Assembly (NCBI GenBank): GCA_964016885.1
Contig: OZ024748.1
Location: 37,076,001 to 37,140,000 of the forward strand
Source: Eledone cirrhosa
Taxonomy: Eukaryota
Reading direction: 5' to 3'
DNA length: 64,000 nt
Part shown: piece by piece, positions 869 through 57,490 of the stretch
Layout of the letters: the number at the start of each line of letters is the position of its first letter
How positions within the stretch are numbered: the first letter of the stretch is position 1
Translations under genes and position numbers: made by a program
The notes under the pieces: generated by a model
What the model was told of the DNA's origin: nothing
Database searches by the model: none
What the model saw: only the letters and a program-made list of their open reading frames with translations

Positions 869-1053
869 GCGAGAAAAACCACAAACCCTCCATCTCAACT
901 CTACTTTTGAAAAGCACAAGAATGCGAAACCGGTAAAGGAAACAAATAAATATTCCTAAAAAGACTCCAGTTTCATTTTCGATTTCATCTTTTTTCCTTA
1001 TACTTTCACTCGTGTAGGACATCTCGTCTTTTTCATTTTGTAAAACAACCCTC
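869..1053 (+). mobile_element. Short TA-flanked HHR element, family A (homologue at 41383-41591 on the - strand)
   Basis: Aligns by eye to the reverse complement of 41383-41591 and carries an HHR motif. Confidence 0.7.
904..938 (+). ncRNA. Minimal type I hammerhead ribozyme, U3-A8 core variant
   Basis: CTT|TTGAAAA|GCA-caagaa-TGC|GAAA|CCGG|TA|AAG. Confidence 0.7.
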
Positions 1054-1080
1054 ATATATATATATATATATATATATATA

Positions 1081-4000
1081 ATTAAATATCTTTAAGTCGT
1101 TTGGAAGCCTCGACAATGCAAATGGGTAAATCTCCGGGTAACAAGATCCGGTGGTGGAGAGAGAGATTTAAGTGGGTGTACGTTGAGATGCGTGGTGTGT
1201 AAAGATGTGTAAATGTGTAGAAGAAAGAAGGGAAGAGTATAAAGGATAAACTAAAAATAACAACACAAGAGAGAGTTACCTTGGGAGAGATTTAATAGTC
1301 CCTATATATTTCGGATTCACATCCATCAACTGGGGTTTTTTTCCGGGGTAAAGGTTGTCTGTCGGACAGGTGCGAAACGCGTCCTCCGCTGTTTGTTGTT
1401 TTGAATATCCGGAAAAAACCCCAGTTGATGGATGTGAATCCGAAATATATAGGGACTATTAAATCTCTCCCAAGGTAACTCTTTCTTGTGTTGTTATTTT
1501 AATTTTATCCTTTATACTCTTCCCTTCTTTCTTCTACACATTTACACATCTTTACACACCACGCATCTCAACGTACACCCACTTACATCTCTCTCTCCAC
1601 CACCGGATCTTGTTACCCGGAGATTTACCCATTTGCATTGTTGAGGCTTCTAAACGACTTAAAGATATTTATTTATTATTCCACAATGCTTCAAGCAAAC
1701 TTGAATACTCTCTTATCCTTACACCTGAGCCAGGAATTGTTTTCATCCGTAAGGGAACTGTTTAGACTGTCGGAGAAATGGGCCAACGCTGGCTGTCAAA
1801 TTATTTTCCTGAAACGCTGCCTAAAAAACGATGTCATCCCCAACACCATCAGGAACATCCGCTTACCAGTAAGCCTACGTACACCAGCTTTCCAAAACAC
1901 CACTAACCGCATACATCGCACGTGTATTCAACAGATCCTGAGACATCTCAACCGCCAATTACACGTCCATAAGCGGACACTCTCAGAGCGGACACATCGA
2001 CTGCCAATAGCACCTGAAAATCACTAAAGCAATCGACCAGTGTTACCACTCCGGAGTCCAATACCAGAAAAAACGGCTCAAGCGAAAATATGAGTGGATC
2101 TTGTCGAAACGCCACAACGGGAACATCGAAACTAACGAACAGACGGACCAGAACCACGTGGGAAACAACAACTTAACAACCGCCACCGCCGCATCCACCA
2201 ACACCGAGCCATACCTCAACGATGCGACGCACCTGGTCACCGACCTAACCGGCATTCTCACGAGCGACGAGCTGAAACTCCTACACCTCGGACCCAAGTT
2301 CATCGTCTCACAACGTCTCGACGACAGACTCAAACTCAACATAGAGGGCAACTTTTGTCGAGCCGCTTACCAACTTAAATGGGTGACCGCCATCAACAGC
2401 GCCACAGAAAATTAACAGCGCCCACGCAACCCACCCCAAGTTCCCCACATACCACCCCGACAAGCCACTCCACCCCCCACCCACCAACCACGAACTCGAC
2501 ACTAAACTCATCAGGCTAAAACACTCCATCTCGGATATACTTCACAAACACACACGCACAACACATAACCTCACCAAATCTCAACTCACCACTCTCTCCA
2601 ACCTAAAAGTGAAGAACCTCATCTATCTCCCCTCCGACAAGGGAAAAGAATTCTGCGTCATCAGCAGAGAGGCCTACAACACCCTGGCCCTCCAACACCT
2701 TGACGATGACAACCTCTACTCCAAGGTCACGGGAATCACTCCCGCGCAGATAGAAGAGCACATCAACGCCGCCTGGACCAACATCTGCGACCGGCGGAAG
2801 CTCCCGAAGAAGCTGAGATACAACCTCCTCACGAGGAACAGCAGACTACCCGCCTTCTACCACCTCGTGAAAACACACAAACAGGGACCCGACCTGAAGA
2901 TCAGACCCATCGTATCGAGCGTGGGGGGACCACTCTACAAAATTTCATGGCTCCTAGCCAGAATACTCAAACCCATCTTAGACACCTTGCCGCGACACGT
3001 TAACAGCTCCGAGGAGGTGTTGAAGTGCCTGCATCAAATGGATCCCGACACCAGAAGGAATAACAGATATGCCTTCAGCCTTGATGTAGTCGCTCTCTAC
3101 ACCTCGGTCCCGGCACTCCCGGACGTCAATATACTGATGGAACGCGTCCAATCCACCGACCTACACTGCTTCGGGCTCACCACCACTGACATCCACCAAC
3201 TCCTATCCATCGTCGTCGACAACACCTACTTCGGATTCCTTGACCAAACATACCAACAAACCTCGGGATTGCCCATGGGATAAAGCCTATCAGGTGTGCT
3301 AGCGATCTCTTACATGGACAACCTCGAACGCAAGGCACTCAACGCCTGCCACCCCAACGCCGTAGCCTTTTTCTCAAGGTACGTGGACGATATCCTCATC
3401 CTCACATCTTCCCAAGACACGGCGAACATAATCTATGAGACGTTCAACAACACGGACGAGAACATTGACTTCAGTGTTGAACACCCCAACGAAAACGGGT
3501 CACTTGTCTTCCTTGACTTCCGAATCAACATCACGGAACAGGGAAGGATCCACTGCAACTTCTACCGAAAGAAGCCTGCAGGGACCTGTTCTTCACTACA
3601 AGTCCGCCCTCCCTAACAGTGCCAAAAGAGGATACATCACGAACGAGATCGCGCGAATCAAAAACAGATGCAGTGATCCTGCGAGTGGTGTCACTCATAC
3701 CAAGCGATTCCTCGAGGTGCTGGAGACGAACGGGTACCCTACCTCGATCACAGAGAGAATAGGAGACACCAGACACAAGAGACAGAGAGGCACCCAAGGC
3801 AAGTGCTTCCTTAAAATGCCACACCTGGGCGAGAATACCACCAACGCTATCCGCAAGGCTATACGGGAGGAGGGCCTCGACATCCACCTGGCCCACTCGG
3901 GCCCCTCCCTGCGAAGATGCCTCTCCAAGAAACCCGGGAAATCTACTGACGCATACTCTCCCAGAGACTGCCCGATACGCCATGCCAACTGTTGCCTACG

Positions 4001-54469: not shown

Positions 54470-56820
54470 TACACACACACACACACATACATACATACAT
54501 ACATACATACAGAGACACTCACACACAGAGATACGTACATACACACAGAGACACTCACACACAGAGACAAATACATACAAACACACATACATACTCACAC
54601 AAACAGACACTCACACACAGAGACACATACATACATACAAACACACATACATAGATACACACACAGAGACACTCACACATAGAGATACGTACATACACAC
54701 AGAGACACTCACACACAGAGACACATACATACAAACACACATACATACACACACAGACACTCACACACAGAGACACATACATACATACAAACACACATAC
54801 ATAGATACTCACACAGAGACACTCACACACAGAGACACATACATACATACAAACACACATAAATAGATACACACACAGAGACACTCACACACAGAGACAC
54901 ATACATACAAACACACATACATACACACACACAGAGACACTCACACACAGAGACACTCACACACAGAGACACATACATACATACAAACACACATAAATAG
55001 ATACACACACAGATACACCCTAACACATAGACACATACATACAAACACACAGAGACACTCACACACAGACACATACATACATACAAACACACATACGTAG
55101 ATACACACACAGAGACACTCACACACAGACACATACATACATACAAACACACATACGTAGATACACACACAGAGACACTCACATACAAACACACATACAT
55201 ACACACACAGAGACACTCACACACACACATAGACACTCATACACAGAGACACTCACACACAGAGACACTCACACACAGACACATACATACAAACACATAC
55301 ATACAAACACACATACGTAGATACACACACAGAGACACTCACACACAGAGACACATACATACAAACACACATACATACACACACAGAGACACTCACACAC
55401 AGAGACACTCACACACAGAGACACTCACACACAGAGACACTCACACACAGAGACACATACATACACACACAGACTTACATACACACATAGACACTCACGC
55501 ACACACAGAGACACTCACTCAGACACAGAGACACTCACTCAGACACAGAGACACTCACACAACACAGAGACACTCACACACAGACACATACATACAAACA
55601 CATACACACAAACACAGACACATACATACACACAGAGACACTCACGCACACACAGAGACACATACATACACACAGAGACACTCACAGACACATACATACA
55701 CACAGGAACACATACATACACACAGACACTCTCACACACACACAGACACATAGATACACACAGGCACACACACACACACATATATATATATACACACAGA
55801 GACACTCACATACACACAGAGAAACTCACATACACACACCCACCCACACAACACACACATACATACACAAAGAGAAACCCACCCACACACAGAGACACTC
55901 ACACATACACACACACACACACACATATACACACAGAGACACTCACCCACACACAGAGACACTCACATACACACACACACAGAGACACTCACATACACAC
56001 ACACACACAGACACATACATACACACAGAAAAACTCACCCACACACAGAGACACTCACACATACACACACAGAGAAACTCACCCACATACAGAGACACTC
56101 ACACATACACACACACATACATACACACAGAGACACTCACCCACACACAGAGACACACACACATACACACACACACACACACACACACACATACATACAC
56201 ACAGAGACACTCACCCACACACAGAGACACTCACACACACACACATACATACACACAGAGAAACTCACCACACACAGAGACACTTACACATACATACACA
56301 CACACACATACATACACACAGAGAAACTCACCCACACACAGAGACACTCACACATACACACACACACATACATACACACAGAGACACTCACCCACACACA
56401 AAGACACTAACACATACACACACACACATATATACACAGAGACACACATGTGAGGTGTTATCAGAAAGTGGAGGGGCTTGGCCTAGTGGTAAGGGTGTTT
56501 CACTTACGATCATAATGCCGATGGTTGTGTTCTTGGGCAAAACACTTCATTTCACGCTATTCCAGTATATTCAGCTGAACACGAGTATCAACAATAGCTG
56601 GGGGTTTAACCCTGGACTGGTGTCCTGTCCGGAAGGGAGTCCTGTACTCTCAGTCGCTGTACACCAGGCTAACGAGCCTCTTTCTTTGGGACATACACAC
56701 AGAGACACTCACATACACACACACACACACACACATACATACACACAGAGAAACTCACCCACACACAGAGACACTCACACATACACACACACACACATAC
56801 ATACATACACACAGGGACAG
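54470..56820. repeat. Complex (CA)/(GA)/(CATA) satellite (ACACAGAGACACTCAC units)
   Basis: Direct inspection; interrupted by a SINE at 56468-56680. Confidence 0.9.
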
Positions 56821-57050
56821 ACTTTAGATAGATAAACAGATAGACAGTCACTTTCTTTACACACACAAAGATACATATTCACACAAGAGAGATGGTATCA
56901 GAAGGTGTGTGTTTTACTATATTTTTGGACAATATTATAATATGACCTCCCCAAATATAACAAATATATATACAACTGTCGGGATCCTGACTCTTTTCCT
57001 ATATATATATATATATATATATATATATATATATATATATATATATATAT

Positions 57051-57490
57051 GAAAAAGTATGACCCCCGACGGTAGAGCTCAAGCCGTTTCTGGACTAAAT
57101 TAGAATTGTTAGCCTGGTGAATAAATAGCCGAACTTTTCAAGGGGGTACTTCCTTATATGGGAAGATTGTAGTTGTCAAGAGGATTGGTTAAAATTTGTT
57201 GTAAACACAAATAAGTCTATCATGGCATTTGTGATATTGTGTTTACAACAAATTTTAACCAATCCTCTTGACAACTACAATCTTTCCATATAAGGAAGTA
57301 CCCCCTTGAAAAGTTCTGCTATTTATTCACCAAGCTAAAAATTCTAATTTAGTCCAGAAATAGCCGTCGAAACGGCTTGAGCTCTGCCGTCGGGGTCATA
57401 CTTTTTCCTATTTCCCACTCTACTACCCTAAGTATTGAGTACTCTGGTGCGTTATGGTCCATCTGGTTCCTTACCACAATTCCTTTGTTA
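57051..57490. mobile_element. Fold-back HHR element, family F (fragments at 6166-6265, 10150-10268, 40460-40521, 41914-41975, 59311-59371)
   Basis: Arms at about 57051-57210 and 57237-57407. HHR at 57302-57395: CCCC|TTGAAAA|G..GCTATTT..AAATAGC..C|GAAA|CGGC-ttgagctct-GCCG|TC|GGGG. Confidence 0.75.

Follow-up and report, generated by a model that had tools for sequence, protein, structure and literature searches.

U3-A8 hammerheads have been reported from the Cercyon Penelope-like elements (PLEs) of Schistosoma mansoni, with about 1,300 hits that are mostly single copies (Cervera and De la Pena 2014, PMC4209133). In the hammerhead core, residues C3 and G8 form a tertiary pair, and residue 8 is proposed to act as general acid through its 2'-OH (PMC9901934, PMC6155905). 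Previously, Perreault et al. 2011 (PMC3088659) described the same U3-A8 covariation from few scattered examples, and natural U3-A8 motifs are said there to be active in vitro, a statement resting on an earlier paper. Canonical hammerheads have been reported for the Hydra clade of PLEs (Craig et al. 2021, PMC8557442), with no mention of U3-A8 found in the portion of that text examined. Type I hammerheads related to those of PLE terminal repeats also occur in animal non-LTR (long terminal repeat) retrozymes, which form tandem arrays (bioRxiv 10.64898/2026.07.22.740005). Here, we analysed a 64,000-nt stretch of the Eledone cirrhosa genome (assembly GCA_964016885.1, contig OZ024748.1, positions 37,076,001 to 37,140,000; hereafter the window), which contains five U3-A8 motifs. 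All five are hammerheads of type I and lie in the 3' ends (pseudo-long terminal repeats, pLTRs) of PLEs.

Like their Cercyon counterparts, the E. cirrhosa motifs combine type I order and a position in PLE terminal repeats with a short stem I, a palindromic stem III and a U3-A8 core, and the inverted pairs of Cercyon motifs, 100-700 bp apart, resemble copies found here (PMC4209133). In contrast to Cercyon, they amount to about 18,000 pattern matches in three families (A, F and P, the last being our label for the family of the motif at 21812-21947) from two other PLE types, stem-loop II measures 56 nt in F and 107 nt in P, and both a C3-A8 subfamily and a sister family with C3-G8 are present for comparison. 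Whole high-copy families here carry the swap known to Perreault et al. from scattered cases. Unlike the retrozymes, the copies represent ends of coding PLEs that are dispersed, 5'-truncated or inverted; a retrozyme-type tandem array of hammerhead monomers was not found, all copies being dispersed or in inverted pairs. From the sequence evidence, we consider it probable that these 3' repeats of three PLE families, with U3-A8 as their family state, encode type I hammerheads that cut the element's own read-through RNA. The swap, which the first-pass annotation had regarded as uncommon, was already known from the literature on PLE hammerheads (PMC4209133), and in sampled E. cirrhosa DNA it accounts for 10 of the 76 matches. 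What is added here is evidence for its likely repeated origin and for the spread of an older, mismatched subfamily.

All five motifs were located where they had been annotated, two of them (41518-41555 and 39423-39460) on the minus strand, and direct reading gives U3-A8 in each (Table 1). A descriptor left free at positions 3, 7 and 8 recovered those at 904, 41518 and 39423, and those at 57302 and 21812, with their long stem-loops II, were parsed by constrained folding. Four of the five have the core UGA-N-N-A, GAAA and a UH triplet in type I order, the exception being 39423-39460 with GCAA. The 41518-41555 motif is identical to the commonest form of family A in the genome, and 904-938 is a worn copy with stems I and II of only 3 bp. 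The motif at 39423-39460 gives no hammerhead in an unconstrained fold, adopts one only when forced, and is probably a dead copy; its subfamily differs from the main family A form by changes in stems I and II that compensate each other. The stem III loop of 57302-57395 contains a 6-nt palindrome, and stem III of 21812-21947 is palindromic. The G10.1-C11.1 pair that closes stem II is present in A and F, and a C-A mismatch stands in its place in P and its C3-G8 sister; several C3-G8 families of this genome likewise lack it. In most family F copies, the second pair of stem II is also a mismatch (U-U). The copies in the window are non-autonomous, 5'-truncated and inserted into (TA)n, two of the five being worn.

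DNA coding for a reverse transcriptase (RT) and for a GIY-YIG domain at the C terminus lies 0.7-1.5 kb upstream of the motif at several loci in each of families A, F and P. Family A copies are 5'-truncated and often form inverted pairs with a one-sided tail and a (TA)n target. Longer copies extend about 0.9 kb upstream into coding sequence for the RT thumb, for a linker of the form C-x4-C-x2-C and for a GIY-YIG domain that contains CCHH (loci L124, L043 and L248; Pfam GIY-YIG, E 6e-5). By the motifs in the L124 translation (a CX2-5CxxC linker and CCHH), compared by eye with the anatomy described in PMC8557442, rather than by trees with reference elements, family A appears to be Neptune/Nematis-like. 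An overlap of the stop codon of the open reading frame (ORF) with the family A core was also considered and ruled out, as the ORF ends about 0.9 kb upstream of the motif. F and P motifs lie 0.7-1.4 kb downstream of ORFs resembling the window ORF at 26917-28971 (tblastn, many loci). Read by eye from the tblastn rows, their proteins have a CxCX5C linker, DKT and an RW motif and lack CCHH, and Pfam detects GIY-YIG weakly (E 0.077) or not at all. Both families appear Hydra-like, again by motifs and not by trees with reference Hydra proteins: CxCX5C, DKT, RW, a GIY-YIG-like domain without CCHH, (TA)n and hammerheads are shared with the Hydra clade, which has RWK where F and P have RWR (PMC8557442). 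The families had been annotated as unrelated; all three are PLEs, and F and P share a clade.

The state of the 3-8 pair was counted as pattern matches across the whole assembly (3.0 Gb, AT-rich and (TA)n-rich), with splits tallied by hand from the listed rows and with inverted pairs and local duplications counting twice; the reversed-pattern control gave 0 matches for every search. Family A has 14,021 matches, of which 130 are non-U3 and 68 non-A8 (33 G, 18 C, 17 T). All 100 listed of the 130 non-U3 copies have A8, and C3-G8 occurs in none of the 14,021 (nine G8 copies outside the listed rows were fetched and are all U3), so that about 13,823 (98.6%) are U3-A8. Family F has 4,177 matches, including 289 non-U3 and 33 non-A8 copies (13 U3-G8, 1 C3-G8), and 3,857 of them (92.3%) are U3-A8; the free position 7 varies over all four bases between F subfamilies, while A8 is kept. 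Family P, with C7 in most copies, shares one search pattern with its larger C3-G8 sister family (9,602 matches together). The first 100 of these comprise 97 C3-G8, 3 U3-A8 and 0 mixed copies. Among the 525 matches with A8, 94 of the 100 listed have the P background with U3-A8 and the other 6 the sister background with C3-A8, and 43 of the 49 matches that combine U3 with a non-A8 base are U3-G8, 41 of these on the sister background. U3-A8 is thus the family state of A, F and P and not a product of decay, and the genome-wide comparison with U3-G8 and C3-A8 that the first-pass annotation had proposed shows it dominating A and F.

To place these families among the hammerheads of the genome, 98 evenly spaced 10-kb stretches (980 kb) were searched with the same free descriptor. 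The 76 matches consist of 60 C3-G8, 10 U3-A8, 2 C3-A8, 2 A3-G8 and 2 A3-U8. The same DNA reversed gave 0 matches, so the motifs are not due to chance; a separate 600-kb pass gave 49 raw matches and 0 in reverse. Clustering of all loci examined yielded 29 clusters, with P and its sister then counted apart. The 17 families present at two or more loci divide into 13 with C3-G8 and 4 with U3-A8, mismatched copies being the majority in no family, and positions 3 and 8 covary across them (Fisher p 0.0004, an optimistic value since the families are related). The 13 single-locus clusters comprise 9 C3-G8, 2 U3-A8, 1 A3-U8 and 1 weak C3-A8. Two stem I pairs show covariation between P and its C3-G8 sister, as do stems I and II when subfamilies of A are compared, and this fixes the hammerhead register.

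Other U3-A8 motifs turned up in the same material. A fourth family (L138, L147:3567, L014:603) has a stem-loop II of 57-59 nt, and two single motifs, L316 (-)3025 and L272 (+)2550, differ in sequence. No ORF linked to the fourth family or to most C3-G8 families was found among the loci examined. A candidate C3-A8 family from the first survey was rejected, being mostly C3-G8 (11 of 18 copies) with CpG decay. An older C3-G8 family with C7 (L263-L277) has 6 of 18 copies turned into C3-A8 by CpG decay, and decay of G8 next to C7 is a possible mutational route to A8.

That the change took place in separate families, as annotated, is likely from the endonuclease tree (16 rows) and an approximately unbiased (AU) test. 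P and its C3-G8 sister are grouped with support of 98/98, and a P+F clade is rejected (p-AU 0.018). Given the C3-G8 state of the sister of P, the rejected P+F clade and the different PLE type of A, a C3-G8 ancestor, as suggested by the prevalence of C3-G8, would likely mean three or more separate changes. U3-A8 would then likely have arisen separately in A, F and P, provided that terminal repeats were not exchanged between elements.

In the proposed mechanism, the read-through RNA of the element would be cut after GUA or GUC, the predicted sites being 41522, 57391 and 21942. The hammerheads may act as dimers joined through the palindromic stem III and thereby process tandem read-through RNA; in the predicted dimer fold of 41518-41555 the palindromes pair, at -22.5 kcal/mol versus -15.0 kcal/mol for two monomers. 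For expression and cutting in vivo, contigs X1 and X4 showed only copy variation and, in X4, one partial match of 55 nt, which speaks neither for nor against. Since U-A and C-G pairs share their geometry, the swapped pair would keep residue 8 in place for its 2'-OH to act as the general acid, as with C3-G8. Long-run pressure on active masters for a Watson-Crick 3-8 pair is likely and would leave families that are either C3-G8 or U3-A8. In the type I dimer model each core cuts the partner strand (PMC4209133), and therefore a weak core could be cut in trans. The pressure is not absolute: a C3-A8 master in family F was possibly trans-cut by an intact partner, or cutting may be only partly needed. 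In the family F motif, one 6-nt word occurs twice at 57361-57395 with its complement in between, so that the monomer fold of lowest energy is a competing hairpin in which GAAA is buried; this hairpin could act as an off state.

Several points weigh against this account. The within-family counts reflect few masters and subsequent neutral decay, and so show the state of the master rather than selection. Stem II lacks G10.1-C11.1 in P and mostly contains the U-U mismatch in F. When a type III hammerhead was subjected to saturation mutagenesis, activity was restored at the 3-8 pair by the G:C swap alone, and U-A is not named among the rescuers in the part of that report consulted (PMC9901934). Metazoan minimal hammerheads cut poorly in vitro (PMC4209133). 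The hammerhead of a lizard PLE cut only in the presence of protein, no RNA ends were seen at the cut site, and its mutants still inserted in vitro (PMC11167929).

The remaining point comes from family F itself, in which 90 of the 100 listed non-U3 copies are C3-A8 and mostly form one coherent, dispersed subfamily (including loci L286, L249, L262 and L299) with an intact four-base stem I and some endonuclease-bearing copies. Extrapolation from the 100 listed of 289 non-U3 copies puts its size at about 260. Its divergence from the column majority is 4.7% (25 copies) versus 2.0% for the young U3-A8 subfamily to which 57302-57395 belongs (36 copies), so the C3-A8 subfamily is the older of the two. 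The window's subfamily nests among C3-A8 copies, both in trees of the 3' ends without positions 3 and 8 and in a rooted endonuclease tree, for which 24 of 32 F copies were kept and 8 with frameshifts dropped. A single U3 clade is weakly rejected (p-AU 0.034), for a hypothesis formed after a tree had been seen and with one bootstrap unsettled, and the basal polytomy of the endonuclease tree is fitted equally well by one U3-to-C3 reversion followed by re-pairing as by a C3-A8 ancestor. Judging from these copies and trees, a mismatched C3-A8 master transposed and was re-paired at least once. It is a serious possibility, though not the one we favour, that F records compensatory evolution, in which a basal C3-A8 master left the roughly 260 copies, perhaps by being cut in trans, and U3 arose at least once, probably twice, giving rise to 92% of the copies.

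If cutting were weak or dispensable, the fold might instead be kept as a structural or protein-binding signal in PLE RNA, with the 3-8 pair mattering as a part of that fold. The spread of the C3-A8 subfamily, the inserting mutants and protein-dependent cutting of the lizard hammerhead and the absence of U-A from the rescuers named in PMC9901934 fit such a signal, as do Naiad PLEs, which thrive without canonical hammerheads (PMC8557442). However, in the active fold the 3-8 pair makes a tertiary contact (PMC9901934), and a C3G/G8C swap partly restored cutting in a PLE hammerhead (PMC11167929). The whole core and the UH triplet are kept in 17 of 17 multi-locus families, although the descriptor required them, so that only the 3-8 pairing is unbiased. 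On balance we regard a purely structural role as unlikely. The earlier proposal that the double change argues for selection on catalysis is an inference weakened by the transposed C3-A8 subfamily and the inserting lizard mutants.

AT-biased drift in relaxed or dead ribozymes, with C to T and then G to A fixed in masters without selection for pairing, appears very improbable. Each step is a transition towards A/T and the genome is AT-rich, CpG decay does produce C3-A8 in the C3-G8 family mentioned above, and F had a C3-A8 master. Such drift would, however, leave families fixed for U3-G8 or C3-A8, of which there are 0 among the 17, while compensatory stem changes occur in the same families (P versus its sister, and A) and the pair is intact in 92-99% of the matches to A and F. 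The refuting outcome named in the first-pass annotation, a C3-G8 consensus with decayed window copies, can practically be dismissed, as C3-G8 occurs in 0 of 14,021 A and 1 of 4,177 F matches, the P-background copies are U3-A8, no support for it was found, and only 904 and 39423 are decayed, at other positions.

The window holds further PLE sequences (Table 1). Ordinary C3-G8 motifs number 17, from six families, and two of them, with a stem-loop II of 88 nt, bound the Hydra-like PLE used as context and control (26335-26441 and 29935-30041). In Hydra-like PLEs here, stem-loop II is often very long (36-115 nt) and begins with a mismatch where G10.1-C11.1 would be expected; examples are these two motifs, 31370-31476, 34966-35071, 39883-39992, 21817-21942 and many genomic loci. 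In loop II of the 26335 C3-G8 family, an approximately 60-nt GT...AG segment (26349-26415) is possibly an intron inside the hammerhead, since by eye its excision would leave a compact stem II hairpin of 9 bp. In the long loop II of P and its sister, splice-like words exist, and an intron reading is not supported (no search was made for spliced copies): the homologous segment measures just 42-49 nt and the words fall in paired stretches of the extended stem. A near-complete PLE at 1081-4923 (RT pieces; GIY-YIG at 3432-4289) has an inverted 5' terminal repeat, and neither descriptor found a hammerhead in it. Two near-identical Hydra-like copies, 27730-29407 and 31998-33675, lie in inverted orientation and are 97% complementary over 1.7 kb. 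An N run (assembly gap) at about 47330-47555 lies within a long (TA)n tract. Fragments at 30487-31078 and 36428-36859 appear similar to the RT end of a CR1/L2-type long interspersed nuclear element, and a short open frame at 195-566 on the minus strand has a cysteine pattern that we take to resemble a PAN/Apple domain exon, possibly an exon of a host gene.

Table 1. U3-A8 hammerheads of the window and associated Penelope-like element (PLE) sequences, in window coordinates.
Feature	Position	Strand	Details
Family A minimal hammerhead	904-938	+	U3 907, A8 912, predicted GUA cut after 935, stems I and II 3 bp each
PLE end carrying 904-938	about 870-1053		5'-truncated, (TA)n on flanks
Family A minimal hammerhead	41518-41555	-	U3 41551, A8 41546, GUA 41522, stems I and II 4 bp each
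PLE end carrying 41518-41555	about 41383-41591		(TA)n on flanks
Hammerhead of diverged family A subfamily	39423-39460 (feature 39424-39460)	-	U3 39457, GCAA (A13C), stem I of three A-U pairs
Family F hammerhead	57302-57395	+	U3 57306, A8 57311, GUC 57391, stem-loop II 56 nt, stem III 5 bp
Family P hammerhead	21812-21947 (feature 21809-21950)	+	U3 21817, A8 21822, GUA 21942, stem I 8 bp, stem-loop II 107 nt
Inverted arm of the 57302 family F insertion	57051-57143	-	core U3 57141; 12-nt deletion takes 3' strand of stem II
Family F insertion, PLE tail extending on one side	57408-57488	+	(TA)n next
Inverted 5'-truncated arm of the family P insertion	21631-21808	-	core begins 21808; stem I 5' strand lost
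Family F fragment	40462-40521	+	hammerhead 3' half only
Family F fragment	41915-41974	-	hammerhead 3' half only
Family F fragment	59311-59378	-	hammerhead 3' half only
Hydra-like PLE (context and control)	26335-30041	+	ORF pieces 26615-27001 and 26917-28971

The warning that CUGANGA searches miss these motifs is true by definition, and it extends to Rfam: the hammerhead models of clan CL00010 gave no hammerhead hit on 41400-41595 at E up to 10, and a C3-G8 control gave a weak one (18.5 bits versus a cut-off of 52). In an Rfam scan of the whole window, no hammerhead appeared among the 150 listed of 691 matches, and nearly all of these 150 were to microsatellite-driven microRNA models. No prior report of a repeated origin of U3-A8 in Hydra- or Neptune-like PLEs, or of a propagated C3-A8 stage, was found in a literature search that left most subscription papers outside, and the supplements of PMC4209133 and PMC8557442 may bear on both points.

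The swap itself leaves textbooks unchanged. With U3-A8 as common as it is here (10 of 76 sampled matches, 4 of 17 families), surveys limited to CUGANGA undercount PLE hammerheads, and short-loop descriptors would overlook those with a long stem-loop II whatever their 3-8 pair. The role of hammerheads in PLEs is an open question (PMC8557442, PMC11167929). The C3-G8 and U3-A8 sister families, together with the propagated C3-A8 subfamily, represent natural matched variants with which the need for cutting and the capacity of dimers for complementation in trans can be examined.

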